Virus record (IMG/VR): IMGVR_UViG_3300031957_002677
Coordinates: 25,836-89,835 of that record
DNA: 64,000 nt
From: a virus
Reading direction: 5' to 3' (one strand)
The notes beneath the pieces were generated by a model. It made no database searches and was not told the DNA's origin. It saw only the letters and a list, made by a program, of their open reading frames with translations. Positions 5,820 to 22,237 of this stretch are shown piece by piece. Every line of letters starts with the position of its first letter. The stretch's first letter is position 1. Both the position numbers and the translations under genes were made by a program.

Positions 5820-6094
5820 CGGGAAAGTCTAACATTTGAACCAACACAATGTAGTTGTTCACCAGTCCACACGTTGTGGGTACGATAATTGATTGAAGTT
5901 TCACTTTCAATGGTCCATCCATCATTAAGGTACTTTCGCAACCCATTAACATCTGTGTCAAACTCACAAAATAACCAACCAAAGGTATCTGCGGTTTTCA
6001 CTGATAGATACATATATTCTTTTTCTCTTGCCTCAGAAGAACAACCAGAGAGAAGAAAAATTGCAGTAGCAGAAAGAAGAAATAGTTTTTTCAT
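5816..6094 (-). CDS. putative lipoprotein, paralog of 6154..6438
   Basis: MKK + hydrophobic stretch + LSGC lipobox; shares TFG..C..D...KYL..GW...SET...C.G..V with its neighbour. Confidence 0.75.
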   Translation of the reverse strand: MKKLFLLSATAIFLLSGCSSEAREKEYMYLSVKTADTFGWLFCEFDTDVNGLRKYLNDGWTIESETSINYRTHNVWTGEQLHCVGSNVRLSR

Positions 6095-6097
6095 TGT

Positions 6098-6154
6098 TTA
6101 GAAGTCATCGATGATAATGTATGGTATTTGTTCATTAAAATACTGAATTTCCAT
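6098..6154 (-). pseudogene. 18-codon ORF, possible relic N-terminus of a 2OG-Fe(II) oxygenase gene
   Basis: MEIQYFNEQIPYIIIDDF* resembles oxygenase N-termini in this window (MNYQINTEPFSHVIIEETF); coupled to the upstream stop. Confidence 0.35.
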
Positions 6155-6438
6155 CACTCATGCTTTACAAGAACAACAGAAGCACCAATACAATTAATAA
6201 CTTGTGTTCCTTGATTACCAAAACCTCTTGTTTGGAATTGCATTGGAGTTTCACTTACAAATTCCCATCCATTTGCAAGATACTTTTTGATATCTTTAAT
6301 GGAAGAGTCCCATCCACAATAAGCATAACCAAACGTACTTCTGGTCATAACTTTAAATTGCTTGTAACGTGGTTTTGCTTCAACAGATGCAGGAAGGAGA
6401 ATTAGTGCGGCAGCAGCAAGAGGAAGTAGTTTTTTCAT
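6154..6438 (-). CDS. putative secreted protein with signal peptide
   Basis: MKKLLPLAAAALILLPASVEA signal peptide; two Cys conserved with paralog 5816..6094. Confidence 0.75.
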   Translation of the reverse strand: MKKLLPLAAAALILLPASVEAKPRYKQFKVMTRSTFGYAYCGWDSSIKDIKKYLANGWEFVSETPMQFQTRGFGNQGTQVINCIGASVVLVKHE

Positions 6439-6441
6439 TGT

Positions 6442-6993
6442 TCAGAAGTTTAGATAGTTTTCGATTGCTTTGTTGATAGCATCAGATAAGAATGATGGTG
6501 GTTGAATAACATCAAACTCACCTAGATCGCACTCATAATAGTCACCCAATTTAAGTTCAATCATGGCACCGTCAGCACCTTCCTGATAGAGAGATCGTGC
6601 TGTTTCATCTTCAACAATCACCACACGACGTGCGGTAAGATCCATCACCATCATGTAGTCAAATGTTTTTATTTGCTTGAAATCTTCTACAGTTTTAGTC
6701 TCACTCAGGAAAGATTTGACTTTAAACTTTTTTGTGGCATTGACATCTTTACGTTTATAGAATAAATTCTTACCCATCTTCAGTTCTACTTTCTTATCAC
6801 CAAAGAGAAAATCATATCCAGTTTGATCAACACGGACCAGATCTGAGAACTTTGCGATTGCTTTCTCAACAGCAGTTGCACGGGCAAAGTTATCAGCATT
6901 TGAGGTGAATCCTTTGTCACTGTAGAGAGAATCTACAACACCAAAGATCTTACCCCAGTCAGTTTTTGTTTCGAGAGAGTCAATCAGGTGCAT
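6442..6993 (-). CDS. putative PD-(D/E)xK nuclease-fold protein
   Basis: AVE...GYDFLFGDKKVELKM pattern; likely start at 6993 (MHLIDS). Confidence 0.5.
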   Translation of the reverse strand: MHLIDSLETKTDWGKIFGVVDSLYSDKGFTSNADNFARATAVEKAIAKFSDLVRVDQTGYDFLFGDKKVELKMGKNLFYKRKDVNATKKFKVKSFLSETKTVEDFKQIKTFDYMMVMDLTARRVVIVEDETARSLYQEGADGAMIELKLGDYYECDLGEFDVIQPPSFLSDAINKAIENYLNF

Positions 6994-7201
6994 CGTTTTG
7001 TTGAGAAAAAGTTTTTTCTGTGATAGAGTGCATATCACTCAGAATCTGTAACTCTTTAAGATGCCATGAAGAAAGATTTGAGATAGCATGATTCATACAG
7101 TGCTGAAGAACCTCTGCTCCATCATCATACTCACACAATTCGCAGATTGTGTCCGCAAACCACGTTTCGTAATCTTTCTTAACCTTATCTGGAGTTTTCA
7201 T
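6980..7201 (-). CDS. hypothetical protein
   Basis: 73-aa ORF in overlapping operon. Confidence 0.65.
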   Translation of the reverse strand: MKTPDKVKKDYETWFADTICELCEYDDGAEVLQHCMNHAISNLSSWHLKELQILSDMHSITEKTFSQQNDAPD

Positions 7202-7394
7202 CGTTCCTAGTAAGTTGCTCCACTATTTCAATGTTAGCATATGTTTCATAATATGCCAAATCCCACAATTCATTAAGAATTGCATCATATTCTTTGTAAG
7301 ATGATCCGTTTACGATACTATTCACCTGTTGTTTGCGAACAGCATCATAAACAAGTTTCCACTGATGATGATTCAAATTCATAATATCTATCAA
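7185..7394 (-). CDS. hypothetical protein
   Basis: 69-aa ORF in overlapping operon. Confidence 0.65.
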   Translation of the reverse strand: MIDIMNLNHHQWKLVYDAVRKQQVNSIVNGSSYKEYDAILNELWDLAYYETYANIEIVEQLTRNDENSR

Positions 7395-7783
7395 CCCTGA
7401 TAGTATGCGTTACGATACAAATAACCACCAGTCCATTCACAATTCTCCAATAAAAATTCACGTTCTTGAATGATCAAGAGATTGAAACGAACACCTTTTG
7501 CAGGTGATTTGTATGATGCTGCCTTGTATACTTCACCAGTCTTCTTGTCAATAAAGGCATGAACTGAATCGTTTTTGCCATTTTTAGTCATGAAGATCTT
7601 GTGATACTTACGACCCATAGAATCAAGATAGAAACCAATGTTACTACCAGTTTGTGGAGCAGTTTGAGTCAGTGCATCACATAAAATGAGGCAAAACTTA
7701 GTGACATTCAACTGAATAGTGTTTCGTGCATCTTGTGTGGCAACGAAATCAGAAAATTCTTTGTTCACTGGTGTGGTGGTCAA
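7391..7783 (-). CDS. conserved phage early hypothetical protein
   Basis: GRKYHKI, SVHAFIDKKTGEVYKAASYKSPAKGVRFNL and WTGGYLY motifs typical of a widespread phage family. Confidence 0.75.
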   Translation of the reverse strand: MTTTPVNKEFSDFVATQDARNTIQLNVTKFCLILCDALTQTAPQTGSNIGFYLDSMGRKYHKIFMTKNGKNDSVHAFIDKKTGEVYKAASYKSPAKGVRFNLLIIQEREFLLENCEWTGGYLYRNAYYQG

Positions 7784-7799
7784 CTGCTTTCTTCAGAAC

Positions 7800-7865
7800 A
7801 AATATAATATAGAGCATTTCTAAGGCAAAGTCAAGACCTAGTGTACAGTTCACTTACTGGCACAG
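7800..7865 (-). promoter_or_regulatory. early promoter element variant
   Basis: GTGCCAGTAAGTGAACTGTACAC then TTGACT...TATATT/TATTAT on the minus strand. Confidence 0.65.
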
Positions 7866-8443
7866 TGTACAAACTTTGTGATGGCATATCTATCATTCTC
7901 AAGAACATCTGTAACACTATGCTCAATCCAACCAGGAAAAATTACGGTTTTATTATTCTTCGTTTCAATTTCATGATCATATCTTGGGAAATATAAATTT
8001 CCTCCAGCATCTTCTTTATGACAAAGTGTTGTGGTTATTAACACATGCACCCAAGTATCTGAGTGTGGTTCATATCCATCCCCAGGAAAATATCTTCTAA
8101 TTTTAGTATAATCTTCACTAGATCTCTGGTATGTAATCCAATAATCATCTTTTGCGATTAAATCATCATAAAACTTATCATTATTGAAAAACATATTCTC
8201 ACAAATCGTTAAGATGTCAGAAATATTACGATAATCATTATGATACACTGAATCTAATGATAAACCTTTTGCTGTTGTTAGATATTTTCCTTCATCATCT
8301 TTTGCTGCCATATATCCTGCAGGATCCTTGAATTTATTCAAAAGAAAATCAAGTTCTCTCCAAATCATGTCATATTGATCTTCATCAAATGTTTCTTCTA
8401 TGATAACATGAGAGAAAGGTTCAGTGTTAATCTGGTAGTTCAT
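7850..8443 (-). CDS. 2OG-Fe(II) oxygenase
   Basis: HxD (PHSD), distal H (WIEHSV), R (DRYAIT); likely start ~8443. Confidence 0.85.
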   Translation of the reverse strand: MNYQINTEPFSHVIIEETFDEDQYDMIWRELDFLLNKFKDPAGYMAAKDDEGKYLTTAKGLSLDSVYHNDYRNISDILTICENMFFNNDKFYDDLIAKDDYWITYQRSSEDYTKIRRYFPGDGYEPHSDTWVHVLITTTLCHKEDAGGNLYFPRYDHEIETKNNKTVIFPGWIEHSVTDVLENDRYAITKFVHCASK

Positions 8444-8636
8444 CATTTTTTTCCAAGAGTTCTTGCATCGTATCCATAAAATCATCTGCTGAAGATAGAG
8501 TATCTAAGGCATGAATCATTTCACCCAATGCTTTAATAAAAAAAGGTTTCTCATTTCTTGCAGCAAATGCTAATGCTTCACGAAGATGTGTTTGAGCAGA
8601 GTCTATTTCTACCCTTACTTGATCAGATAGTGCCAT
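8427..8636 (-). CDS. small helical hypothetical protein
   Basis: 69-aa ORF with LREALAFAARNEKP, translationally coupled. Confidence 0.75.
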   Translation of the reverse strand: MALSDQVRVEIDSAQTHLREALAFAARNEKPFFIKALGEMIHALDTLSSADDFMDTMQELLEKNDELPD

Positions 8637-9283
8637 TAGTTTTTTCTTCCTGTGTAAATTTTTAGGTCTTCTTCATATTCAAAATAATCTTCAAGTTCAC
8701 TATCATCGCAAAAATAGTTTCCCCAACCAGTTGCAATATATTTACTCTTTGAATATACAGGATTTCCACGATGAGTATGAGTGTAAAATGCGGGCCAAAT
8801 TAACATCGTCCCTGCTTTTGGTTGTACTCTAAGACCTTGCCAAAGAAACTCACTTTCACCCTCACCTTCAGGAATGTCATTCAAATATAACATCCAAGCA
8901 ACACATCTATCAACAGCACCCAAATCAGTAATCTCACAGTGCCAGTCATGAAATCCACCTCTAGGTGGAGTTTTTTGAAGTTTTACCTCATCAAAGTTTA
9001 TAGAAACATAATTAGAAACCCAAAAGATTTTTTGATACTTTTCCCAGCAATACTCTACTGTTTTAATAATAAGATCAAATGCTGGACTATGATCCAGATA
9101 CCACTGATAATCATGCCTAGTTAGATGACCCATTACAGTGCCATCTATTCCCTTCCCAGTTCTAAGATTGTTGCTTGGATCATCTGGATCCTTATAATTG
9201 GAATCAAATAGTGATACTAAAGAATCACAAACATCAATATCCATTACATTTTCATAAAGACCAATAAAATCATTATGTTTCAT
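8636..9283 (-). CDS. 2OG-Fe(II) oxygenase
   Basis: FHDWHCE, AWMLYLND, WPAFYTHTHRGNP, KYIATGW. Confidence 0.88.
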   Translation of the reverse strand: MKHNDFIGLYENVMDIDVCDSLVSLFDSNYKDPDDPSNNLRTGKGIDGTVMGHLTRHDYQWYLDHSPAFDLIIKTVEYCWEKYQKIFWVSNYVSINFDEVKLQKTPPRGGFHDWHCEITDLGAVDRCVAWMLYLNDIPEGEGESEFLWQGLRVQPKAGTMLIWPAFYTHTHRGNPVYSKSKYIATGWGNYFCDDSELEDYFEYEEDLKIYTGRKN

Positions 9284-10677
9284 ACGACCCAAGTAATGAT
9301 AGAAAATCTTGTTCCAGATTTAACTGGCATAATTTCATGTGGGTACATAAAATTAGATGGGAACATGATCACATCACCAGCATCCAGTTTATATACCAGT
9401 TCACGATTGAATAGTGCAACTTCTCCACCTTCATAAGCATTATTCATTGACACAATCACTGTCAATGCTCTAGGTTGTTCTTTGAATGAATCTGTATGTT
9501 CAATATAAAAGTCACCCTCTTCATATTTGAGCAGTTCATAACCACTATCCTCCTGGATTTCTAGTTCAAACTCTGGATGTGCTTCTTGATAAAGTCCGAT
9601 TAAGTTTTGAACAACCTCAAACATTTGATCATCTAATTGCTTCCTAACCTCAGAATTTTCTTCAGCAATGATTGATTGTTCAGAGATACAAATTTGTTCA
9701 CATCTTCTTGCTTCTGGATCGTGACCACTTCCAGTTAATGTTGCTTCCCAATAGTTTGTATTTGCATACTCATCTAGGATTTTATCGCATAGTTCAGGAT
9801 CAACAACTTCTTCACCATACCATACAAAGTCGGCAAGAGATTTAGATGATAATTTGCCAGATGGTTTTGATTTCTCTTCTACTTTAGGTTCGTTAATCAA
9901 CTCTGGAGTATCCTTCTTTGTCAAGAACTTTTCATATTTGCTATTAACAATGACTACATCATCAAAGTCAATATAATCAGTATCATTTACAGGATCTTGC
10001 ACAATTTCAACTGTTGAAGAGTCTTCATTTTGTTGCTGTTGCTGTCTATACTTCCGAGGAAGAATTGTCATGTCACTTACATTAGAAAAGTTTCTCATTT
10101 GTTCATACTCCTGTAATAGTTCTTCAGTGTTAATATCTCTAAATTTATTTTTATCAAAGTATGCAGGACTACACATACCACGACTTCTTACATAATGCAA
10201 GAAAAATTGAGTGTACTCTTCACCCTCAAATTCATCTCTCCAATGTGGAGCAATACACCCCAAGTATAGCATAGCATCACCAGGATTCAAGTTAACTGAT
10301 CTATTCTTTCCTTCTGGTGTTTCAATCCAAATTGCCCAAGGTTTATCACTACCAAGGTGCAATGTCATTGAAATTTCACATCCAGGACGATCAGTATGTC
10401 TATGGAGAATACTTCCGTTTCGATATATTCTAGAATAAACGTAAGTGGGAAGAACGGTTTCACCAATTAGTTTAGAAACTTCTGGAGTTTTATTTGCCAG
10501 AAGTTCTAATGCTGGAAGATAATCATATACTGCTGATGATTTTGGTGCCTGTTCATCACCATTGAAATCAAAGATTTCATCAGTAACAAAAAACTCTTTC
10601 TCTAATTGTGCTGCATGTTGTGGATCAATAAAATTTGGAACAACAATATAGTTGTTCTTCAATAATTCAATATTCAT
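9280..10677 (-). CDS. tandem two-domain 2OG-Fe(II) oxygenase
   Basis: Domain 1: RHTDRP, PHWRD, FLHYV; domain 2: EHTDS, GGE, FPSNFMYPHEI, GTRFSI. Confidence 0.88.
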   Translation of the reverse strand: MNIELLKNNYIVVPNFIDPQHAAQLEKEFFVTDEIFDFNGDEQAPKSSAVYDYLPALELLANKTPEVSKLIGETVLPTYVYSRIYRNGSILHRHTDRPGCEISMTLHLGSDKPWAIWIETPEGKNRSVNLNPGDAMLYLGCIAPHWRDEFEGEEYTQFFLHYVRSRGMCSPAYFDKNKFRDINTEELLQEYEQMRNFSNVSDMTILPRKYRQQQQQNEDSSTVEIVQDPVNDTDYIDFDDVVIVNSKYEKFLTKKDTPELINEPKVEEKSKPSGKLSSKSLADFVWYGEEVVDPELCDKILDEYANTNYWEATLTGSGHDPEARRCEQICISEQSIIAEENSEVRKQLDDQMFEVVQNLIGLYQEAHPEFELEIQEDSGYELLKYEEGDFYIEHTDSFKEQPRALTVIVSMNNAYEGGEVALFNRELVYKLDAGDVIMFPSNFMYPHEIMPVKSGTRFSIITWVV

Positions 10678-10686
10678 TTCATTCTA

Positions 10687-12021
10687 TCAACTATTCTTAT
10701 CTAGTACGTCTTTAAGAGCAGCAAACCACTTGACTGCTTTTTCTGCTGGGAATGAATTATCATCTCTCTCATTATCAGTTAGTGTAGTATAAAGTTGCTC
10801 TGGATCAATACCATCCATAAGTGTTAGGATTTCATCAATAGATTTGTCTTCACCACTTTCAATTTCCTGACGTTCAATGTTAGTCCTAATAAGTTTTTCT
10901 TGCTCAGCAGCATAACCACTACTATAAGATGATTCAAGTTTTTGTTTCTGAACTTTTTTATACTCAACTTCTGCTTTTTCAAATTCACGTTCTACAGCAT
11001 CATCAAGTTCGTCATATGCTTCTTCTTGAGACATTTTATTGAGAAGATCTTCATGTGCCCTCATAATAATATCTAGTTCTTGTTCCTTCTGAATCTCAAA
11101 TTGAGTTCTTTCTCTCTCCAGTTCTCTCTGAATCCTCTCCCTATTCAAGTTAATTTGATCTTGAACTTCTCTATTCTCTAATTCAATAATCTCTAGAACT
11201 TGTTTCTGCGATTCAATTTCTATCTTAGAAATATCGAGTTGTTCTTCCTCAAGCAACCTTACTTTTGCTATCATTTCTTCTCTCATTGCTCTTTCTTTAT
11301 CTTCGAGAGCAAGATTTTTCTCAGAGTCATCAATTTCACGTTCTATCTTGTCACGTTCCATTTGAAGCAGTTCTTGATACTGCTTTCGTTCTTCCACAAA
11401 GTGTTCCTTTTCTTTCTCAAAATCATGATAAAGTTCATCATATTTTTTAGAAAGTTCTAGAGACTTTTTCTCGAAGAACTCATCTGCTTTTTGTGCTTCT
11501 AACCCTGCTTTTTCGGACTCACGTGCTGCTTTTTCACGTTCAAGTTGAATATTAGCATTTTGTTTTTCATATTCTAATGCTTGCTCTTTCTTAGACTTTT
11601 CATCGTAAAGATTCTCTCTCTCATCACGAAGTTCTTTGTTCTGCCTCTGAAGATCTTCAATAATAACAAGTTGTGCTTCTTTCTCCAGTTTATCTAGATT
11701 TAATTCCTCGATCTGAGCAGCAAGATTTTCCTCTTCTTTTAGTGCAGATTCAAGTTCTTTTTTCTCATATACATCCAAAAATGTATTGAAATAATCTAAG
11801 TATGGTTGAATAATAGTATTAAATTCATCTTCACCAAAAACTTTATTGGGTGCAGGATCTTCACCAGGAGTATCTTCATACTCTAGTTCACCTCTACCAT
11901 CTCTCCATTGAATAGCATGAATAGTCTCGTCATCAAAATCCCAAGGTGCATCATCCTCAAGATCTACAGTACGACCATCTACGATAATTTTTTTATCTTC
12001 TGGAATAATAGAAATTCTCAT
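10687..12021 (-). CDS. fibre-assembly-like N-terminal domain fused to a long acidic coiled coil
   Basis: N-terminal ~85 aa (IIPED..IIVDG...IHAIQW..G.GELEY) resemble small proteins found next to cyanophage fibre genes; followed by ~350 aa of E-rich helical sequence. Confidence 0.6.
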   Translation of the reverse strand: MRISIIPEDKKIIVDGRTVDLEDDAPWDFDDETIHAIQWRDGRGELEYEDTPGEDPAPNKVFGEDEFNTIIQPYLDYFNTFLDVYEKKELESALKEEENLAAQIEELNLDKLEKEAQLVIIEDLQRQNKELRDERENLYDEKSKKEQALEYEKQNANIQLEREKAARESEKAGLEAQKADEFFEKKSLELSKKYDELYHDFEKEKEHFVEERKQYQELLQMERDKIEREIDDSEKNLALEDKERAMREEMIAKVRLLEEEQLDISKIEIESQKQVLEIIELENREVQDQINLNRERIQRELERERTQFEIQKEQELDIIMRAHEDLLNKMSQEEAYDELDDAVEREFEKAEVEYKKVQKQKLESSYSSGYAAEQEKLIRTNIERQEIESGEDKSIDEILTLMDGIDPEQLYTTLTDNERDDNSFPAEKAVKWFAALKDVLDKNS

Positions 12022-12398
12022 TGTTGATCCTCTTCAGATTTTGGTAGTAAGTTACTTTCTTCAGTATTATCTAGTTGTTCGATGTATTCGGAAACATTGA
12101 CACCCTGATCTTCACACATATCAAGATACATATTACCAACAGCATCTAGCATATTCTGATTGGTTTCATGTGCTTTCACCATTTCATTTCTAAATGACTC
12201 AACAGCAGAACTGGTAGATCTTTGTTGCTGACTGTTTTCAATCATAAGCATTGGCATCCATTGAATTGCACACGACCAATGATCTACTTGCTGACCAGTA
12301 TTAGGATCTTGCCCAGCAATATGTGTGTACCATGCACACTTATGTTCGACACAATCCTTTTTAATAAGAGGACACCACTTGCCAGATGCTTTAGTCAT
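12018..12398 (-). CDS. Cys-rich fibre-associated protein
   Basis: WCPLIKKDCVEHKCAWY...WSCAI (4 Cys, putative metal site), AVESFRNEMV helix, acidic tail. Confidence 0.65.
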   Translation of the reverse strand: MTKASGKWCPLIKKDCVEHKCAWYTHIAGQDPNTGQQVDHWSCAIQWMPMLMIENSQQQRSTSSAVESFRNEMVKAHETNQNMLDAVGNMYLDMCEDQGVNVSEYIEQLDNTEESNLLPKSEEDQQ

Positions 12399-12417
12399 AA
12401 GATGAAATTCAGTGTAT

Positions 12418-12450
12418 TATTTATTATAGCACGATCAATCCAAAGTGCAA
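12418..12450 (-). promoter_or_regulatory. overlapping sigma70-type and T4 late-type promoters
   Basis: TTGCAC-N16-TATAAT with extended TG (TGCTATAAT), immediately followed by ATAAATA (12418-12424). Confidence 0.55.
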
Positions 12451-13697
12451 AGGATCACATCGATATATTGAACTCTCAATGGTGATAATGAAGCAACAAA
12501 ACTAACAGGACTTCCACTAAATGGATGACTATGTGGTTGACCACCACCAGTTGATGATGTTGCTGGACCTTGAGTATTGCTATTTCTAATAGTACCACCA
12601 GGAGTCAAAATTCTCTGTGTTACCCTCACACTTGTAGTTTGTGGATATCTTTGAGGTGTACGATATGCTCTTGGTTGCCTATAAGCTGCAGGATTTCTTT
12701 GAGGAACTGTAACTCTGAATGGAATATTCACTCGGAAAGAATTTCTCTGTCTGAATGAATATCTCACTCTGAATGATCTAGGTTGCCTCTGTCTAAATGA
12801 TCTCCTCTGCCTAACATTTCTAGGTTGTCTAGTATTACGAGGTTGACGGAAAGATCTTCTCTGCCTAGAAGATACAGGTCTCCTAAACTGCCTTCTCTGT
12901 CTCCACCAACTTACTCTAGGTTGTCTTCTATCTGCTCTTCTTGGGATTCTATCATTTCTCCTTCTCCTACCCCATCTTCTTCTAGGTGTTCTGTCATTAT
13001 TTCTGACACTTGCTCTCCAAGATTGACCAATAGGGTTTCTCCATCTTCCACCATCAACACGGAAACTGAACGGTCTTCGTGATCTTAAAGGAACACGAAA
13101 AGCAATAGGAACTCTGAAACTGATTGGTCTTCTAGAACGTGTAGGGTATCTAACTCTTTGGTTTCTTGGTTGTCTCTGTCTGAGTGGAACTCTTTGTCTT
13201 CGTGGTTGTCTATAGTTACGAGGTTGCCTTACATTAGTTGGTTGTCTAAAGTTGACAATAACACGGTTATTGATCTGGACTCTTCTTGCCGCTCTAATAT
13301 TATATCCACGTGGTTGCCTATTACTGGTTCTAAATGGTGAAGAACCAGCAGATGATCTATATGAGTTTGGATTACTTCCCGTATTATGTGTATGTGCTGG
13401 TAATTGTTGAGTGGTAAGTGTAGTACCACCCGAAGAACCTGCAATGGTCGAACTACAATTTGCATCTGCACCTGCATCAGCAAATACTGCACTAAAATCA
13501 AGTGCTCCAGATGATAATCCACCAGTACCATCTACAACTCTAAGTGATTGATCATTTGCCTGTGTTTCTTTGGACCATCCAGTTGGTGCTGATGCTTGAT
13601 AAAACACCATTGTAGAGGATTGTGGAATGATCCCATAAAATGTTGATAATTGAGTACCATTGCCAAATTCGATCCCATCTGCTCTTAAAATAGACAT
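12435..13697 (-). CDS. HxH fibre-tip-like protein with ~240-aa Arg-rich hexapeptide-repeat insertion
   Basis: N- and C-termini align with paralog 13708..14244 (FYQASAPxGW, TTLTTQQxPxHTH, PATSxTGGGxxHxHPF, LRVxYIDVI); insert lies between the two HxH motifs. Confidence 0.75.
   Translation of the reverse strand: MSILRADGIEFGNGTQLSTFYGIIPQSSTMVFYQASAPTGWSKETQANDQSLRVVDGTGGLSSGALDFSAVFADAGADANCSSTIAGSSGGTTLTTQQLPAHTHNTGSNPNSYRSSAGSSPFRTSNRQPRGYNIRAARRVQINNRVIVNFRQPTNVRQPRNYRQPRRQRVPLRQRQPRNQRVRYPTRSRRPISFRVPIAFRVPLRSRRPFSFRVDGGRWRNPIGQSWRASVRNNDRTPRRRWGRRRRNDRIPRRADRRQPRVSWWRQRRQFRRPVSSRQRRSFRQPRNTRQPRNVRQRRSFRQRQPRSFRVRYSFRQRNSFRVNIPFRVTVPQRNPAAYRQPRAYRTPQRYPQTTSVRVTQRILTPGGTIRNSNTQGPATSSTGGGQPHSHPFSGSPVSFVASLSPLRVQYIDVILCTLD
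12570..13360 (-). repeat. coding 6-aa (18-nt) period Arg-initiated repeats
   Basis: RQPRNY/RQPRRQ/RVPLRQ/RQPRNQ...RQRRSF/RQPRNT/RQPRNV/RQRRSF/RVRYSF/RQRNSF/RVNIPF/RQPRAY. Confidence 0.85.
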
Positions 13698-13707
13698 ATA
13701 TTATACC

Positions 13708-14244
13708 TCAACTAAAACGACAGATAATGACATCAATATACTTAACTCTTAGATCAATATTTCCAGTATATGGTGATGCTCCACCATTAAATGGGTGAGT
13801 ATGTGCTGCACCTCCACCAGTTGGTGATGTTGCTGGAGCACTGGTATTTACAGCACGACCACCAATACCAGGAGATCCAGGACTTACATTAACCTGAGAA
13901 CCAGCATTATGAGTATGCCCAGGAATTTGTTGAGTTGTCAATGTTGTAGGTCCTAATGAACCAGCAGCAGTTACAGTTCCACTAATTGGACGAGTTGATG
14001 TGGGAAATATTGTGGAGAATGGTTGTCCACCAGGACCAGCAGTTCCACCAGAACCAAATCCACCACCAGTTCCAGATACAACTCTAAGTGCCTTATTATT
14101 ATGAGAAGTTACTTGTGCCCATCCACTAGGTGCCGATGCCTGATAAAATACTGCAACACTATTTTGAGGGATAATTCCATATTTAGAGTTCAGAACGGTA
14201 TTATCAGATCCAAATTGTATACCACTCGTTTGTAAAATAGACAT
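13708..14244 (-). CDS. short tail fibre tip / collar-domain protein
   Basis: FYQASAPSGW collar motif, TTLTTQQIPGHTH and AAHTHPF HxH motifs, YIDVIIC C-terminus. Confidence 0.75.
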   Translation of the reverse strand: MSILQTSGIQFGSDNTVLNSKYGIIPQNSVAVFYQASAPSGWAQVTSHNNKALRVVSGTGGGFGSGGTAGPGGQPFSTIFPTSTRPISGTVTAAGSLGPTTLTTQQIPGHTHNAGSQVNVSPGSPGIGGRAVNTSAPATSPTGGGAAHTHPFNGGASPYTGNIDLRVKYIDVIICRFS

Positions 14245-14278
14245 ATTATACCAATTACTAACAACAGATAACGTGTAT

Positions 14279-14285
14279 TATTTAT
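14279..14285 (-). promoter_or_regulatory. T4-type late promoter
   Basis: ATAAATA 35 nt upstream of the fibre-tip gene pair. Confidence 0.55.
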
Positions 14286-14962
14286 CCAATATTAAATGCG
14301 ATGGATATTCTTTCTTCTTGACTAAAGTGTGGTGTAACATAATGTGCGACTGTAGATGGCATTAAATAGAAAACATCTTCCTTAGGTTCAATTACCCACT
14401 CACAATTCCCAGGAATATCAGCAAAACAAGCATTGTGATTTGATGGATCAGTTCTTAGTAAAGTGAGTTTACCTTCCTGTTCATTTAGGTTCTTAGGAAT
14501 TTTTGGATAATAAAGTCCAATAACAGTACATCCAGGATGAGTATGATAAACATTATATCCCATTCCCTTGTTAATGTTAATCCACCATCCAATTTGATTA
14601 TCATCTACCCTATAAGTTGCACCAAAGTCTTCCAGCATTTCATTTGTTAGATCGATGGCATTTCTTGCTAAATTTTGAACAGCAGGAGTTGTTGTTCTTT
14701 TGATTGTGGGTAATTCATAAACCTGACTTTGCCATCCTTCACCAAAATTAGATTTTTTCACTCCATTAGGAAACTTTCTCATTAGATCATAACATTCATG
14801 GATAAGAGATTCGTTATCAATATCTAAAGTGAAAGTATATAGTGGTGTGATGAAGAGGTCATCACGACTTTTGTCAGAAACAGTAATCTCTGAGAAATTA
14901 TCATCGTTTGGACTAATCTCAGCTCTAAATCTGTGCATATCAATCTTGCTCCTCAGTTTCAT
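14282..14962 (-). CDS. 2OG-Fe(II) oxygenase-like protein (TIGR02466-like, HxH)
   Basis: SNFGEGWQS, WININ, HTHPG, VAHYVTP, ERISIAFN. Confidence 0.8.
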   Translation of the reverse strand: MKLRSKIDMHRFRAEISPNDDNFSEITVSDKSRDDLFITPLYTFTLDIDNESLIHECYDLMRKFPNGVKKSNFGEGWQSQVYELPTIKRTTTPAVQNLARNAIDLTNEMLEDFGATYRVDDNQIGWWININKGMGYNVYHTHPGCTVIGLYYPKIPKNLNEQEGKLTLLRTDPSNHNACFADIPGNCEWVIEPKEDVFYLMPSTVAHYVTPHFSQEERISIAFNIG

Positions 14963-15677
14963 TCATCATAAAAAATACTTGATTAATTCTATATTCAGCA
15001 TCACTATAGTGATCACCAAAATAATGTTCACCAGTTAAGTTCATACTATGATAATAATATGATCCTTCAAACATTGCAAATCTATTAAATTTTGAACGAA
15101 AACTAACTACAATTTCCCATAAGTTTTTTGGTGTCCATGGTATTGCATGTTCATCTCTAACACCATTATTTTCATCCAGAGGTAAGAGGTCTGGATTATC
15201 AGTAATTAATGGTTTATATAAGTTAGTCCCTATCTCATCATTCGTGGATAAGTAACAGATACCATTATATCCTCCATCATGATGAGGCCACCAGTAATGA
15301 CTTTCATATGGATTATCATCAATTCGTGAGAATCTTGTAAAATTAGTTACTATTTCATCCACATCTGCCGATTCTTGATTACAAATACCTGAGATCTTAT
15401 TGTATAGTGAAGACATACCAGGATGCTTCATCATATGTCTACGATCCTCAAAGTTCTTGGTGTTGAGTGTACCTCTACCAAGTTCCCAATCTTCTCCCAT
15501 TTTCCACAATGGTGGTTCAATAGACAGAAGATATTCATAGACATCATATGGTCTTTTATAAAAATTATCCATCCAATAAAAATTGGAAACCTTATCACCA
15601 TCATAAAACTCAATGATATTCATATTAGAAAAATCATTGGTATCAAACAATGAATGATCATTTGCAAAATTTTTCAT
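14940..15677 (-). CDS. 2OG-Fe(II) oxygenase-like protein
   Basis: MDNFYKRP, WPHHD, ICYL, GTNLY, KFNR, YYHSM, YRINQVFF. Confidence 0.7.
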   Translation of the reverse strand: MKNFANDHSLFDTNDFSNMNIIEFYDGDKVSNFYWMDNFYKRPYDVYEYLLSIEPPLWKMGEDWELGRGTLNTKNFEDRRHMMKHPGMSSLYNKISGICNQESADVDEIVTNFTRFSRIDDNPYESHYWWPHHDGGYNGICYLSTNDEIGTNLYKPLITDNPDLLPLDENNGVRDEHAIPWTPKNLWEIVVSFRSKFNRFAMFEGSYYYHSMNLTGEHYFGDHYSDAEYRINQVFFMMNETEEQD

Positions 15678-16285
15678 AAAAATATCTCCTGTATTTTTTC
15701 ATCATCTAAACAAAATCCAAAAACCCATAATATTCTAGGAGTATCACCTTTAGTCGGAGTTACTTCATGATGAATCTCAGATACTTGATATATCAAAAGG
15801 TCTGTAGAATTTATGTCTTTATATTCTACACCACCAATGATAGTATGTCCACCCACATCTGCCTGTTGTGTGATAGCATTGAAGTGAACTGTTTTAGTAT
15901 TTGGATAATATGTAGGGTCAATATGATTATCTATTCTACCACCTTCATATCCAATTCCATTTACGATTCCATGACTATATGATGGTGGACTTTTATACCA
16001 TTCTAGATGAAAATAATTGATTATTCTTTGCCTGACAATATGTGCAGCATTAGGATATTGTATATCTGGAGCAACTGATTCATTTGGAAACCGAGTTGTA
16101 AATCTCGTTCCAGGATTATCAGGATCCATGTTAGCATCCTCAAAGAATTCTTGATTACAATTATCAAGAGTCCATTGATTAAGTGCCTTTACATCATCTT
16201 TGAATATAAAATTGCGAAGAATAAATGATTTAGACATCTTGGGTGCAATACTCACCACCACCCTTTTCTTCATCTGCAAAAGCAA
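15674..16285 (-). CDS. 2OG-Fe(II) oxygenase
   Basis: NHIDP, GG, IHHEVTP, PRILWVFGF; true start may be the downstream MSKSF. Confidence 0.8.
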   Translation of the reverse strand: MLLQMKKRVVVSIAPKMSKSFILRNFIFKDDVKALNQWTLDNCNQEFFEDANMDPDNPGTRFTTRFPNESVAPDIQYPNAAHIVRQRIINYFHLEWYKSPPSYSHGIVNGIGYEGGRIDNHIDPTYYPNTKTVHFNAITQQADVGGHTIIGGVEYKDINSTDLLIYQVSEIHHEVTPTKGDTPRILWVFGFCLDDEKIQEIFL

Positions 16286-16898
16286 AACTCTCGTATTCTG
16301 TATTCAAATTAAATGAAAGAATAATTCTGTCCTCATCACTTTCATTTGGAGCAGTGTAATGAAGAACATATGATGGGAAGAAAAGAATAGATCCTTCTCT
16401 AATTCCTGGTGGAAGAGTATTACAAATCTCAGTATCTGCTAGATTGGGATTTAGAAATATGGTTGGTGTGTGTTTATTAGGATCAAATTTAATGAAACAA
16501 ACAGCACTAAATCCCTGCGATCCATGATTATGAACCTGATGAAACTTACTATGAGTTGCTCTCTCAAACCAAGACGTACATACTTCTACAGCACACTCAA
16601 AGGTATCCGAAAAAGATTCTAATTCTGATTGAAGAATCTGCGTAATCTCTCTATCATAAGTTTCTCCAGTATCATGATTATGATGATAGTCAGTTTCCAC
16701 ATCTAGAGAAGATTCTGAACCTGTAGCAATCTTAAATTTATCTCTTTCATCCCTTCTCCGTTCAAACATATCAAGGAGAATTGCTTTCTTTTCCTCCCAG
16801 TCTTCTACTTTAAGATGTAGAAGTGGAACAGAAAACATAGGAATCAAGTATTCACTATGCCCTTCAGGAACTTCACAGTATAAATGAAAATTTGACAT
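16230..16898 (-). CDS. 2OG-Fe(II) oxygenase-like protein (TIGR02466-like, HxH)
   Basis: MFSVP, HQVHNHG, FSAVCFI, EGSILFFPSYVLHY, RIILSFN. Confidence 0.8.
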   Translation of the reverse strand: MSNFHLYCEVPEGHSEYLIPMFSVPLLHLKVEDWEEKKAILLDMFERRRDERDKFKIATGSESSLDVETDYHHNHDTGETYDREITQILQSELESFSDTFECAVEVCTSWFERATHSKFHQVHNHGSQGFSAVCFIKFDPNKHTPTIFLNPNLADTEICNTLPPGIREGSILFFPSYVLHYTAPNESDEDRIILSFNLNTEYESFAFADEEKGGGEYCTQDV

Positions 16899-16903
16899 AC
16901 TAA

Positions 16904-17128
16904 TTACTTTTTCGTTTTCTTTTTATATCTTTTTTGTAATTTTAACACATCTTTCATTGCTGTGTCAAATTTACGGTAAAGTTTACCTGTTGGTTTTCCT
17001 TCAGCAATAATTGTGTATTTAACACCATTTCCTGCCATCGGAATCACAACAAAGTTTCCATCATCAGAGCAGAATTGTTTGTAATGAGTAGATTCTAACA
17101 CTGATGAGTTAGTATATGTATACTTCAT
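16904..17128 (-). CDS. small basic hypothetical protein
   Basis: 74-aa ORF in operon. Confidence 0.7.
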   Translation of the reverse strand: MKYTYTNSSVLESTHYKQFCSDDGNFVVIPMAGNGVKYTIIAEGKPTGKLYRKFDTAMKDVLKLQKRYKKKTKK

Positions 17129-17131
17129 AAA

Positions 17132-18391
17132 TTACTTCTTAATTACAGAAACAGCAGCATCACCTTGCTCAAACACAATGTCAACAACATTCTGAATCTT
17201 TTGTGCAGTCTGAATACCAACTTTGTTGTAAGCAGGAATACAAACCAAACCATAAGATTTAGTGTATTGATCAAGTTTACCTGGAACAATAGTTCCATTG
17301 CGAAGACCAGCAGCATCATCTTTATGCAATCGAATCACACGACCGATAGTCTGACTGATGCCAATATAATTCATTGACCTCATAAAGATCACAGAATTGA
17401 GACCAGAGACGTTAATACCTTCTGAGAGGATGCTGTGATGAAGCACAACAAACTTCTTCTCATCATCCCTACCCCAAGCACTCAAAGTCTCAAAGAACTT
17501 CTCACGATTGACCTTACGACCATCAATCACTGCACCAGTCTTGGCAGTGATATACATGTAAGAATAACCACGTACTTCCAGTTGAAAAGTAAAATCAGAC
17601 TGACCAATCAGGTTGATGATATTCTTAGTAGATTTTGAGCAGATCAGTGCTTTATCAGCACCAGTCTCATCAATAGTCTTGATTAGATGTGCAGAATCAC
17701 GGACAGGAACATCAGGATAAAGATCTGCATTATCTAGTTGATTGACAACAACCTTAGGAGGAATGATGAAACCGTTGTTGACCAGTTCGGGTGCAGGAAC
17801 CTGACAAATAACCTGACCGTAAACTTCAGGATCATTCATGCCAGGTTTCATTACCGTAATAGAATGCTTCGGAGTTGCAGTAAAGAAATAGCAACGATCA
17901 GCATCATGACTGAAAAACTCAGTAGGAGGAAAGAAGTTACGGGTAACGGAATTGTGTGCCTCATCAAAATATATTGTATTGACTTCAATATCTGCTTCCA
18001 TCACACGATGAAGAGAATGATAAGTAGTGAAGATGATCATGTTCTCACCCATGCTACGAGCAGTGCCAGCATATAGATGAATCTGATCTGGTTTAGTAGA
18101 ACTAAAGTAATGAGTCTCACCACTATGAACGTGCATTACATGCAAATATGGATCACTGTTATTAGGATCAATAAGTTCCATAAACTCACTACAGAGTTGC
18201 TCAGCAAGAAGAATGCGAGGAGCAACAACAACAGTAGTGGTGCCACTGTTGATTGCATCGTGTGTTGTAATAGTATCTTGAATCATGGTGATAGTCTTAC
18301 CACCACCAGTCGGAACGATTACTTGTCCAAGATCGTGCTTCAACATAGCATCGCAAGCACGTTGCTGATGAGGACGAAGAGAAATGGTCAA
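17132..18391 (-). CDS. superfamily 2 (DEAH) helicase-like ATPase
   Basis: LRPHQ Q-motif, PTGGGKT Walker A, FDEAH, FTATP, LSEGIN, QTIGRVIR. Confidence 0.9.
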   Translation of the reverse strand: MTISLRPHQQRACDAMLKHDLGQVIVPTGGGKTITMIQDTITTHDAINSGTTTVVVAPRILLAEQLCSEFMELIDPNNSDPYLHVMHVHSGETHYFSSTKPDQIHLYAGTARSMGENMIIFTTYHSLHRVMEADIEVNTIYFDEAHNSVTRNFFPPTEFFSHDADRCYFFTATPKHSITVMKPGMNDPEVYGQVICQVPAPELVNNGFIIPPKVVVNQLDNADLYPDVPVRDSAHLIKTIDETGADKALICSKSTKNIINLIGQSDFTFQLEVRGYSYMYITAKTGAVIDGRKVNREKFFETLSAWGRDDEKKFVVLHHSILSEGINVSGLNSVIFMRSMNYIGISQTIGRVIRLHKDDAAGLRNGTIVPGKLDQYTKSYGLVCIPAYNKVGIQTAQKIQNVVDIVFEQGDAAVSVIKK

Positions 18392-18409
18392 GTGCTTTCC
18401 GTATCAATG

Positions 18410-18472
18410 AATATACTATAAAGCACCCAGACCCTAAAGTCAAGGTGCTTGTGACAGTTCGCAAACTGGTTC
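18410..18472 (-). promoter_or_regulatory. early promoter element variant
   Basis: CCAGTTTGCGAACTGTCAC...TTGACT-N17-TATAGT upstream of the helicase operon. Confidence 0.65.
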
Positions 18473-18474
18473 TA

Positions 18475-18639
18475 TCAGATCATTTTCATCGTCTCTTGTT
18501 GTTTGAAATATAATTTTACATATGATTTAAGCATCGTTCGTAGACCCTCAATATCTTCAATCTTATCAATATCTCTTGAAAGTCTTTCATACTCAAAAGA
18601 TTTTGATGGTGTTTGTAATGAAATCTCAGATGGGTCCAT
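18475..18639 (-). CDS. 54-aa NblA-like (phycobilisome degradation adaptor-like) microprotein, missed by ORF track
   Basis: MDPSEISLQTPSKSFEYERLSRDIDKIEDIEGLRTMLKSYVKLYFKQQETMKMI*; AAGGAG RBS; two-helix pattern with an L.T....F motif. The ORF is solid; the family call is tentative. Confidence 0.5.
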   Translation of the reverse strand: MDPSEISLQTPSKSFEYERLSRDIDKIEDIEGLRTMLKSYVKLYFKQQETMKMI

Positions 18640-18748
18640 AAAGATACTCCTTTAGCAATTTTCTAGCATTATATAGACGTGTCAAGGTCTTAAAGCTATT
18701 TCCTTTCTAACCCCAACAGAGAGATTGTAGCAACTTTTAGGTATCTTG

Positions 18749-21700
18749 TCAATACAACCCAGCATCAATCTCAACATTTACAACATTTAGAACTTCTTTT
18801 ACCTCTACTCCTGTGTCAATAGTATTTGCTTCAAAGATTGTAGTGATTCCAAGAGTGTTGCTTATGTTGATATAGAGATTTTGTAACTCTATCTCAGATG
18901 GAAGTCCTTGAGGTAGGAGATAACGATCTCTTCCAACTTCACCAGTGCCAGGATCAATATTTACATCGGTGCGGATTGCAACTCTTCCAGCAGATTGATC
19001 ATAGAAAATACCAGCATACTTATGAGTTGAAAGTCCAACATCATAACGTGCCATCAAAATACCAGCATCACCAGTATTTCCTACTGCTACATTAGGTGGA
19101 ATAAGTGTTCCTTGATTAAGTGGATCTTCAATGAGACCAAGTGTGAGAAGGTTATCTCTAATGTTAACATCTTCAACATTCAGTCTTGCTTCATTACCAT
19201 TGAAGAATGCACTATTAGCAGTAACATCACTTGAAATTGCAACATTACCAGTGCCATCATCCATTGCAATACAGATTGTTCCACCACCAGCACGCATAGT
19301 GCCTGTGCCTACTTGTAAATCACCTGTGACAGTTGTCAATATATCACTATCCATTGTGATATTATCTTGACCATTACTTGCACGAATGATGTTACCACCG
19401 ACTTGAATTGGTCCAGCAAATATGGTATTATTATTTGCTACCATAGTGATATTAGTATCACCAGTACCTGCTAGAATATTATTTCCTTCAACTCTGATGT
19501 CACCAGTGAAACTTGTTAGTTCCTGAGCATCAAACATCAAGATATTAACTGTACTATCAGATGCTAGAATTTGATTTCCACGAACTTCTAGATCACCATA
19601 AAGAATAGTTTTAGAATCACCTTCTATTGTAATGTTAGTAACACCAATACCATCTTGAATATCTCTTCCACCAACAACTAAATCACCAGTAATTTCAGTA
19701 TATGTTGCACCAAGACCAATTTGAATTGCAGTAAATTCGTCAGATGATTGAATAACATTCTTACCAAGTCTCAAGAAACCAGTAAGTTCTGTGACATTAT
19801 TCCTAATGGTAGCAATACCAATATCATCTGCACCAATAACAACATCTTCTCCAGATTTGAATAAGTCTGCTCTTTGTGATGTATCAGCAATATCAATAAC
19901 ATTAGAGTCGCACTTAATATGAGTACCACCAATCTGAACGAAACCTGCAAATGCTGTTGAAGTAGCACTATCAAGTGTGATATTTACTTGCCTATCACTT
20001 GCTTTAATTTCATTTTGTGATAGAATCAGTCTTGTAAGTTCTGTATTTTCACTTCTAATTGATGTAATAGATCCTGCCTGTTCACCTTGACCCATGTCAA
20101 TGAATTGTGCTCCACCTGCAAAATTCAGTTCAGTAACACCATAATTTAATAGGTCAAATCTTAATTCTGGATTTTCTACTGATGCATTGATTGCAGTGCC
20201 AAGAACACTTAAGTTATTGTGTACGAATAGACTTGTACTAAATGCATCCAGATAGAAACCTGGATTAACAAACATTTGTGCTCCAGCATCAGTCTGAGAA
20301 GTTCCAGCATTTGCCATTGCTGGATAGAAGAACTCAGGATTTGTGCTATTATTTACATCTTGCTTATAAACGTCTACATTATTTGCTTGGAAAGCAGTAG
20401 AAACGAATGCATTATTGAAATTATCACTAATAACGTTTAAGAATCCATTGATTGTTGCAACACCAACATGATTAAAGAAACCAGCACTATCAACATTAGC
20501 AAACCTCGACTTACCTGGACCAACATCTAGGTATATTTCATTTTCATCCGTATTACCAACTCCAGCAACATTTAGATATGCAATCGTTGCACCCAAACCA
20601 ACGTCTAGGTTCACCAAATTTGCTTGACTGTCAGTTCCCTCAGGACCAACATCTAAGAAGTTACTAAAAATAGTATTCCAACGACCACCGTCACTACCAA
20701 TACCACCAGTTGGAATGTTATTAGTATTTGGTAATAAATTTGAGAATACTGCACCATCAGTATTAACCTCAGTTTTTCCCAATGGAGCAAATGATGATTG
20801 TTTAGAAGATGGTGTCATACCAATCGAAAGGATTGGCATCTCCAAATTCATATTTCCGTAAAATCTACTGAGTACATCATCACCGAGATGATCTTCAGAT
20901 CCACTAGTTCCACCTAATCCATAACCAACTTCAATATATTCGGAAACACTAAATCCATAACCAACTTGTCCAAATTGACGAACCTCCATACCACCAGTGG
21001 TGAAAATGGCGGCAGAAGCTGCTTCTGTATCAATACCTGCTTGTGCCCAGTCACCTTCACGTTGATCATTAAATACTCTCAACCTTGCTTTTTCTGAATT
21101 ACCTGGTTCACGGACGATATTAATGTCCTCCATACAAGTGATGGTGTCATAAAATAGGGATTCGGGAACAACAACGAACTCAGTTCCTAAACCAGTCTCA
21201 CCACCATTTATAGGATCAGTGATAAGTGGATCACCACCATTAAAGTGAACTCTACCAGAAACATATAGTGCTACTTCTTTGGGATCTGCTGCACCAACAT
21301 TATCAATTACAACTAAACCGTGTGCTGTAAAATCATCATCCGCAGAACCATTGATAGTACCACCAGGACCAGTGACTGCGATACCAATATCAGCATTACT
21401 ATTTGCCGCATTACCACCTTGTGCTCCAGCAACAGGAACATTTGGTTGTCCAATATAAACCGTTCCCATTCCTGAGTCACGGGCAAGCGTAGTAACTCCA
21501 GTAACTACAAGATCCCTAGTTGTTGTGAGTCCACCTACGTTTAACTTGGGGAATGTTGCTCCGAAACCAGTTACAGAACCACTAGATCCATTATCAACAT
21601 TTAAGTTTCCTTCAATATAAACATCGTCTAGTAAATATGTCTCATTAAAGTTAATCAGTGAATCATCAGCAGTAGAACCTCTTGCTGTTCTCTCTGTTAG

Positions 21701-21835
21701 ATAGTCACCGACTGTGCTACCGATACCAACACCACCCAACATGACTAAAGATGTTGATAATCCTATGTTTTGATTGGCATCTCTAATTTCAACAAAAGAT
21801 GCAAATTGAGATAATTCTCTACTATTTCTAGTCAT
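18749..21835 (-). CDS. large tail fibre / virion structural protein
   Basis: 1028 aa, G/T/I-rich beta repeats (TGDLxVGG.xI.xSDG), C-terminal IDAGLY; late promoter upstream. Confidence 0.75.
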   Translation of the reverse strand: MTRNSRELSQFASFVEIRDANQNIGLSTSLVMLGGVGIGSTVGDYLTERTARGSTADDSLINFNETYLLDDVYIEGNLNVDNGSSGSVTGFGATFPKLNVGGLTTTRDLVVTGVTTLARDSGMGTVYIGQPNVPVAGAQGGNAANSNADIGIAVTGPGGTINGSADDDFTAHGLVVIDNVGAADPKEVALYVSGRVHFNGGDPLITDPINGGETGLGTEFVVVPESLFYDTITCMEDINIVREPGNSEKARLRVFNDQREGDWAQAGIDTEAASAAIFTTGGMEVRQFGQVGYGFSVSEYIEVGYGLGGTSGSEDHLGDDVLSRFYGNMNLEMPILSIGMTPSSKQSSFAPLGKTEVNTDGAVFSNLLPNTNNIPTGGIGSDGGRWNTIFSNFLDVGPEGTDSQANLVNLDVGLGATIAYLNVAGVGNTDENEIYLDVGPGKSRFANVDSAGFFNHVGVATINGFLNVISDNFNNAFVSTAFQANNVDVYKQDVNNSTNPEFFYPAMANAGTSQTDAGAQMFVNPGFYLDAFSTSLFVHNNLSVLGTAINASVENPELRFDLLNYGVTELNFAGGAQFIDMGQGEQAGSITSIRSENTELTRLILSQNEIKASDRQVNITLDSATSTAFAGFVQIGGTHIKCDSNVIDIADTSQRADLFKSGEDVVIGADDIGIATIRNNVTELTGFLRLGKNVIQSSDEFTAIQIGLGATYTEITGDLVVGGRDIQDGIGVTNITIEGDSKTILYGDLEVRGNQILASDSTVNILMFDAQELTSFTGDIRVEGNNILAGTGDTNITMVANNNTIFAGPIQVGGNIIRASNGQDNITMDSDILTTVTGDLQVGTGTMRAGGGTICIAMDDGTGNVAISSDVTANSAFFNGNEARLNVEDVNIRDNLLTLGLIEDPLNQGTLIPPNVAVGNTGDAGILMARYDVGLSTHKYAGIFYDQSAGRVAIRTDVNIDPGTGEVGRDRYLLPQGLPSEIELQNLYINISNTLGITTIFEANTIDTGVEVKEVLNVVNVEIDAGLY

Positions 21836-21867
21836 CTATTTCTTTAGCTAGGTGGATCTCTTAAGAG

Positions 21868-21896
21868 TATTTAGTTTCTCACAATCTCCTATTTAT
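21868..21896 (-). promoter_or_regulatory. T4-type late promoter(s)
   Basis: ATAAATA (21890-21896) and CTAAATA (21868-21874). Confidence 0.5.
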
Positions 21897-22237
21897 CCCA
21901 TAGTAATTGTTGTGGATAATGCACCAACAGTAATGACTAAATTATTACCAATAACATTTAATGAAACTGCTGTACCAATTCCATTTGTACTAATACCACC
22001 AGTTACTAGAATCTCACCAGTCACATCAAGTGCTTTCTGTGGTTGAGTGCTACCAATACCTACAGAATATCCAGTTCCTACAATTACGTCAGACTGAACT
22101 TTACCACCAATAGTAACATCTGTGCTAATAGCAACAGTATTTGCATCTAGATTGAGATTTGTGGGACTAGTTAATTTGGGTACTCCAGAAGAACCAATCA
22201 GTTCTATTTTCTTTACACCAAAATTTTTATCTGCCAT
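21893..22237 (-). CDS. small tail-fibre-like structural protein
   Basis: VGIGSTQPQKALDVTG fibre repeat; ATAAATA at 22250-22256. Confidence 0.65.
   Translation of the reverse strand: MADKNFGVKKIELIGSSGVPKLTSPTNLNLDANTVAISTDVTIGGKVQSDVIVGTGYSVGIGSTQPQKALDVTGEILVTGGISTNGIGTAVSLNVIGNNLVITVGALSTTITMG

Follow-up and report, generated by a model that had tools for sequence, protein, structure and literature searches.

We propose that positions 7850-16898 of the window, the 64,000-nucleotide stretch analysed here as part of an 89.8-kb IMG/VR contig, encode the distal tail-fibre-tip module of a marine cyanomyovirus, in which protein F is a gp37-type tip with a long cationic needle and proteins G and H are assembly partners; we assign this reading a probability of about 0.6. 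The closest named relative is Synechococcus phage S-SCSM1 (Kyanoviridae), and the window can be described as S-SCSM1-like: the 9-kb stretch shows approximately 78% identity to that phage across 96% of its length, with a gene order identical to open reading frames (ORFs) ORF240-251. Its genes, all on the minus strand, are lettered A to L in order of transcription. An earlier sequence-only reading had listed four 2-oxoglutarate (2OG)-Fe(II) oxygenases, a short HxH tip protein, an insert-bearing paralog of it, a Cys-rich protein, an acidic coiled-coil protein and three further oxygenases in this order, and all of these were found in place. Missing from its list was gene K (8427-8636, 69 amino acids (aa)), which sits between J and L.

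According to the favoured reading, E and F would each be a small receptor-binding tip that stands alone and has the 'collar plus HxH needle' architecture of T4 gp37/gp12, and the short loop between the two HxH motifs of F would have expanded to about 285 residues. In an F trimer, the hydrophobic and aromatic faces of this excursion would pack into a thin six-stranded needle, at least 18 nm and possibly about 40 nm long, exposing a ladder of Arg and Pro on its exterior and a poly-Arg/Gly cluster at its distal apex, and contacting polyanionic cell-surface material. G, with its four Cys residues, and H, with a chaperone-type N-domain and an acidic coiled coil, would assist fibre-tip assembly, the helical region of H having grown along with the needle. 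The oxygenase genes would be neighbours in a hyperplastic island whose substrates need not be the fibre, with I and K as ancestral neighbours of the tip module and A-D, J and L as clade-specific additions.

Fibre-tip proteins E and F and the Arg-rich excursion

13708-14244, minus strand: E, stand-alone 178-aa fibre-tip protein of the gp37/gp12 type with two HxH motifs
12435-13697, minus strand: F, 420-aa paralog of E bearing the Arg-rich excursion
12534-13385, minus strand: F residues 105-388, the excursion between the HxH motifs; hexad repeats whose Arg/Pro face alternates with a hydrophobic one, predicted to run out and back as a beta-hairpin
12912-12992, minus strand: poly-Arg apex of F (aa 236-262, RRRWGRRRRNDR...), lying exactly midway between its HxH motifs

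E and F share about 50% identity outside the insert. A profile of 38 E homologs matches two solved tail fibres, 9qgo_A (E-value 2e-5, profile positions 7-163) and 9nxk_A (E-value 1e-3), the latter being the fibre of Pseudomonas phage Pa223, the matched portion of which has been described as T4 gp37-tip-like (9nxk). The S-SCSM1 supplement gives HHpred/Phyre matches of ORF244 and ORF245, the orthologs of E and F, to T4 gp12, gp37 and gp10. PF07484 was not matched by either protein in the Pfam search. In other cyanophage contigs, collagen-like long fibres carry the E-type domain at their C-terminus, and ORF244 carries the GenBank note 'virion protein' in a phage whose virion proteome was measured. 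Taken together, the profile matches, the capping of long fibres and the virion note bear out the earlier assignment of E and F as fibre-tip proteins. Both HxH motifs of E (H110/H112 and H148/H150) lie 35 residues apart and do not vary among 38 sequences; the same two motifs in F (H102/H104 and H389/H391), invariant in 28 sequences, are 287 residues apart. F also retains all invariant tip-domain residues and the N-terminal segment common to virion protein E.

With 82 Arg (20% of the protein) and a single Lys, F has an isoelectric point (pI) of 12 and a net charge of +69, and its Arg-rich insert of about 285 residues is free of Lys. Arg autocorrelation in F has a period of 6/12/18, and the commonest Pro spacing is 6, with Arg at positions -2 and +4 of Pro. 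Among 5.8 billion sequences, relatives of the insert form 40 clusters, all of them F-like proteins 411-477 aa long, and a single short DNA tandem repeat was detected for it. Compared with S-SCSM1, the insert is 77% identical with zero indels. The ratio of nonsynonymous to synonymous substitution rates (dN/dS) against two relatives is 0.23-0.32, similar to that of the flanking tip domain, and 78/79 and 74/79 of the insert Arg residues are conserved in them (94-99%). These substitution patterns indicate that the insert is under purifying selection. The peak of Arg density falls no more than 6 residues from the HxH midpoint in 26 of 32 distinct variants, with spans ranging from 278 to 369 aa, so the two arms of the insert stay balanced as its length changes.

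A monomer model of F, generated with AlphaFold2 (AF2) from a 28-sequence alignment, contains two 56-residue strands (aa 123-178 and 309-364) placed symmetrically about the midpoint, with block-mean predicted local distance difference test (pLDDT) values of 56-79, and a central part (aa 195-292) with pLDDT below 50. One phase of the strands is Arg, Pro or polar, including 12 Arg among 28 residues; the other is hydrophobic, aromatic or Gln, with 12/28 and 17/28 hydrophobic residues. From this model and the alternating pattern we infer that the insert could form an amphipathic out-and-back beta-hairpin, which in a trimer would yield a six-stranded needle with a poly-Arg apex. A literature search found no paper on the F insert and nothing relevant on Arg-rich fibre repeats or cyanophage oxygenase substrates.

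Proposed assembly partners and transcription signals

12018-12398, minus strand: G, 126 aa with an acidic tail; the four Cys C9, C16, C21 and C43 are invariant
10687-12021, minus strand: H, N-domain of the tail-fibre-chaperone type (aa 1-~80) followed by an acidic helical/coiled-coil stretch of ~300 aa and a short C-terminal domain
16939-16968, minus strand: sigma-70-like promoter TTGACA-18-TAAAAT with TG, 11/12 matches, just upstream of A
14275-14285, minus strand: T4-type late-promoter-like motif ATAAATAATAC, ~30 nucleotides (nt) upstream of E, kept in relatives
12414-12451, minus strand: promoter region upstream of G, late-like ATAAATAATAC (12414-12424) overlapping sigma-70-like TTTGCA-17-TATAAT

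Homologs of G come after fibre genes in P-SSM2, in other cyanomyoviruses and in a Roseobacter podovirus. In P-SSM2, CRP-361 and locus L036, the gene following G carries Pfam Phage_tail_APC (PF16778), and the N-domain of H is shared with these PF16778-bearing tail assembly chaperones at the same position after G (BLASTP E-values 8e-9 and 2e-5). H itself has no Pfam match, the APC domain being missing. Across the insert-bearing clade, phylogenetic independent contrasts of F and H length are correlated (r=0.57, p=0.002), and the control comparisons with G, I, E, C and D are not significant. H is plausibly a partner or chaperone of F. It is also strongly acidic (pI 4.45, net charge -59) and nearly balances F, the two net charges adding up to +2.9 ± 9.8. 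However, H homologs beside insert-less tips (149-352 aa) already have net charges of -29 to -80 although those tips are neutral, so the acidity of H is not explained by adaptation to the polycation alone. The proposal that H chaperones the polycation gains from the chaperone-type N-domain and from the length co-variation with F. The expected tracking of the insert by the acidic extension holds for length; in the charge contrasts it is not specific to H.

Only two copies of the 11-mer ATAAATAATAC are present in the window, one preceding E and the other preceding G, and relatives keep the motif. On the minus strand of 6000-22000, ATAAATA is found three times in total, in each case 20-55 nt before a structural-type gene: a 1028-aa virion protein gene (21890-21896), E (14275-14285) and G (12414-12424). 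The exact TATAAATA is absent near the cluster, and it is the shorter ATAAATA core that is informative. A-D are placed upstream of the late-promoter-like motif preceding E. Given the sigma-70-like promoter before A and the late-like motifs before E and G, A-D may be early genes, and E-F and G-L may be late units. Further upstream, a strong sigma-70-like promoter (18724-18752) precedes a 54-aa ORF (18475-18639, minus strand) whose syntenic counterpart in S-SCSM1, ORF237, is annotated nblA (phycobilisome degradation protein).

Several points weigh against the tip-module reading. The F ortholog ORF245, unlike the E ortholog, bears no virion note in S-SCSM1, and the presence of F on particles is for that reason unproven, though trypsin would shred F. 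Both structural models are poor overall: the E monomer has a mean pLDDT of 63.6 and gave no Foldseek match in the PDB at an E-value of 0.001 or below, and the model of F, likewise monomeric, has a mean pLDDT of 49.0. The charge contrasts of F correlate not only with those of H but also with those of G (r=-0.73) and oxygenase C (r=-0.48); net-charge co-evolution of F and H was consequently rejected as specific evidence. H length grows about half as fast as that of F (~40 aa per ~90 aa), which misfits a simple ruler model, and H as a physical ruler of the needle was rejected. Finally, the promoter calls are consensus matches only.

Oxygenase genes and alternative readings

16230-16898, minus strand: A, 2OG-Fe(II) oxygenase of the PF13759/TIGR02466 type (HxH...H)
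15674-16285, minus strand: B, divergent 2OG-Fe(II) oxygenase-like protein, invariant HxD...H...R; likely start 16210 (MSKSF)
14940-15677, minus strand: C, DUF6445-like, 2OG-Fe(II) oxygenase-like protein, invariant HxD...H...R; PHROG label 'minor coat protein'
14282-14962, minus strand: D, 2OG-Fe(II) oxygenase of the PF13759/TIGR02466 type
9280-10677, minus strand: I, two-domain oxygenase; N-domain with invariant HxD...H, C-domain PF13640, PiuC/YbiX-like
8636-9292, minus strand: J, 2OG-Fe(II) oxygenase, PF13640 (HxE...H)
8427-8636, minus strand: K, 69-aa protein, phrog_1179, conserved partner of I
7850-8485, minus strand: L, 2OG-Fe(II) oxygenase, PF13640 (HxD); true start probably ~40 nt into the longest ORF

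A and D match Pfam 2OG-FeII_Oxy_5 (PF13759), and the C-domain of I, J and L match 2OG-FeII_Oxy_3 (PF13640), all above the gathering cut-offs. B and C have no Pfam match; their HxD...H...R motifs are invariant across 13 orthologs each, and their closest ESM-Atlas clusters carry PF13640 and DUF6445. Alignment of the B and C families with the A/D and J/L families using hhalign gave probabilities below 6%, weak but with the register correct, and PDB profile searches with B, C and the I N-domain returned nothing meaningful. The N-domain of I keeps H94-x-D96...H145 in 18 sequences and has no Pfam match, which makes an eighth catalytic domain likely rather than proven. The earlier count of seven genes and eight catalytic domains is thus secured by Pfam for five domains, whereas B, C and the I N-domain are likely members. 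An equation of the I N-domain with the P-SSM2 'piuC/ferrochelatase' protein was rejected: the two show no similarity, and the P-SSM2 protein corresponds to the I C-domain. The 2OG-Fe(II) oxygenase family is expanded genome-wide, with 24 such oxygenases spread over the S-SCSM1 genome. Beyond the cluster, further members are encoded in the window at ~36105-36386 on the minus strand (PF13640, 60 bits) and on the same contig upstream of the window (PF13759, 30.6 bits).

The distribution of these genes was compared across ~170 related loci and covered ~30 distinct insert-bearing loci, down to ~30% F identity. Insert-bearing loci have the arrangement A-B-C-D-E-F-G-H-I(-J)-K(-L), with C-D-E-F adjacency invariant in the clade. 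Insert-less phages have E-E'-G-H-I-K, without B, C, D, J or L within 10 kb. Among the loci fetched, B, C, D, J and L therefore adjoin a tip gene only where the tip carries the insert, as would be predicted if the oxygenase set tracked the insert; the same genes beside insert-less tips, which would speak against such a link, were found for I and K, which also flank the P-SSM2 collagen-like fibre. In the tree of G, read after setting aside three mislabelled truncated rows, every insert-bearing locus lies on one side of one starred branch. Since all insert-bearing loci fall in one clade, a single origin follows, and the co-occurrence counts as one event.

The sequence-only reading had seen a self-contained maturation locus here, with the flanking oxygenases hydroxylating hexad residues such as Pro, Arg or Asn and H acting as chaperone, in the manner of a cluster for ribosomally synthesised and post-translationally modified peptides (RiPPs). 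The co-occurrence of B, C, D, J and L with the insert and the invariant C-D-E-F adjacency speak for it, as do the fixed hexad positions of Pro and Arg on the predicted exposed face and the lack of a strong promoter between G, H, I, J, K and L, which are possibly one transcription unit. The PF13640 family is, moreover, of the prolyl-4-hydroxylase type. Against this stand the single origin of the insert and the presence of I and K beside insert-less tips and the P-SSM2 fibre. C-like and B-like genes are also found at sites without a neighbouring tip gene. Some insert-bearing loci (L014, L019, L111) lack J, L or both, and in L197 (4353-8635), which has the insert too, the A-B and C-D pairs are separated by an RNA-repair cassette, comprising RNA ligase 1, a polynucleotide kinase (AAA_33 + PNKP phosphatase) and an HNH endonuclease, along with a further 2OG oxygenase and a CxxCxxCC protein. 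The many related genes elsewhere on the S-SCSM1 genome and on this contig also argue against a dedicated role, as does the position of A-D, which follow an early-type promoter and precede the late-like motif. Furthermore, the insert-less loci L034 (5947-8462) and L048 (4760-7010) hold a radical SAM enzyme, a carbamoyltransferase and weak 2OG oxygenases at the same place, upstream of E. In a RiPP-like cluster, enzymes and substrate gene would co-occur in independent lineages and never be apart; here they co-occur in one clade, and relatives of the enzymes are found apart from any tip. There is hence no support for a maturation locus complete in itself, with every oxygenase acting on the insert, and we do not favour an oxygenase maturation battery, which we consider unlikely. 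A narrower version would limit the enzymes to B, C, D, J and L, possibly joined by I, and their hydroxylation to exposed Pro, Arg or Asn in the needle hexad repeats; it appears equally doubtful.

Three observations concern the surroundings of these genes. The slot upstream of the tip genes is filled by different enzyme sets in insert-less and insert-bearing phages. A B-like oxygenase gene (L199, 8001-8540; 41% identity) occurs on two contigs that lack fibre-tip, G and H genes within 8 kb of it. At the other end, the module is bounded downstream by a conserved DUF7717 gene (7391-7783, minus strand) in nearly every related locus, insert-bearing or insert-less.

F might also be an intracellular polycation, either binding and condensing nucleic acid or directed against the host, that was built on a fibre-tip scaffold and is neutralised by H (and G). 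The near 1:1 opposition of charges (+69 for F, -59 for H) and the lack of a virion flag on F in S-SCSM1 would fit this view. However, F keeps both HxH pairs and the other invariant tip residues together with the N-terminal segment of virion protein E, the strict two-faced beta pattern with its central apex suits a structural needle, and a late-promoter-like motif precedes E-F, so that we regard such a role as quite improbable. That the insert is an intrinsically disordered low-complexity spacer or slippage product, devoid of defined structure or specific function, would agree with its biased composition, the low pLDDT of its centre and the one short tandem repeat found, but is very doubtful in view of the indel-free alignment with S-SCSM1 and the constrained, Arg-conserving substitutions, the alternation of hydrophobic and Arg/Pro faces through 56 residues per arm, and arms that stay balanced over spans from 278 to 369 aa.

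Significance and comparison with known systems

Receptor-binding tips decide which cyanobacteria a phage infects, and the proposed needle suggests that polyanionic envelope material of Synechococcus or Prochlorococcus would be captured electrostatically. Near-identical DNA of 7850-16898 (at least half of the sampled words) is present in 20 sequencing runs from 14 studies, mainly metagenomes of marine water, sediment and estuaries, with no RNA run among them; three of the runs may represent the sample of origin. Were the oxygenases to act on the needle after all, a phage receptor-binding fibre would be the substrate of a multi-enzyme post-translational maturation pathway, and a first substrate would be at hand for the enigmatic expansion of 2OG-Fe(II) oxygenases in cyanophages. 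Viral prolyl-4-hydroxylases acting on Pro-rich repeats include the PBCV-1 enzyme and the mimivirus collagen hydroxylase. The present locus resembles these systems in that PF13640-type oxygenases are found in a virus that also encodes repeat-rich structural proteins. It differs from them in that the conserved oxygenase I also adjoins tips without Pro-bearing repeats.

The same gene order is found in S-SCSM1 (ORF240-251, MK867354), with the virion protein ORF244 and an F ortholog, ORF245, that is 77% identical and has no indel in the insert. In the paper describing that phage, the oxygenases are counted among 24 genes of the auxiliary metabolic gene (AMG) type and ORF245 is termed a 'short tail fiber' (PMC9602691); neither the Arg-rich insert nor the acidic partner is mentioned, and the words 'arginine' and 'tail fiber' do not occur in its main text. 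As S-SCSM1 is in culture, the oxygenase-substrate question is directly testable on one defined candidate, although the present evidence does not favour the link.

H resembles the PF16778 chaperones P-SSM2_030 and CRP-361 gp41 in its N-terminal domain, which contains an IHA[IV]QW motif, and in its placement after a fibre gene and the four-Cys G gene. Unlike these chaperones, it lacks the APC domain and instead has the acidic coiled coil of ~300 aa and a different C-terminal domain. Such a lengthened chaperone-like protein would represent a natural case of fibre/chaperone co-evolution.

The closest structural parallel is T4 gp37. In its solved tip (PDB 2XGF), the collar consists of residues 811-881 and 1010-1026, the needle is the excursion 882-1009, the needle His residues bind iron, and the receptor-binding tip lies near the middle. 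Similarly to the gp37 collar (D10) and needle (D11), and to the collar domains of gp12 and gp10, the collar of F would be interrupted by an out-and-back excursion, with HxH motifs at the needle base and the apex at the midpoint. The dedicated chaperones gp38 and gp57A, which gp37 needs, may be likened to G and H. In contrast to gp37, E and F are small and stand alone without a shaft, and the excursion of F is longer (~285 aa versus 128 aa). F has two HxH motifs, both at the base, whereas gp37 has seven Fe sites along its needle. The excursion of F also differs from that of gp37 in being built of Arg/Pro/aromatic hexads, free of Lys, with a net charge of about +69. A Lys-free, Arg-coated beta-needle of ~285 residues ending in a poly-Arg apex would be a new construction among gp37-type tips.

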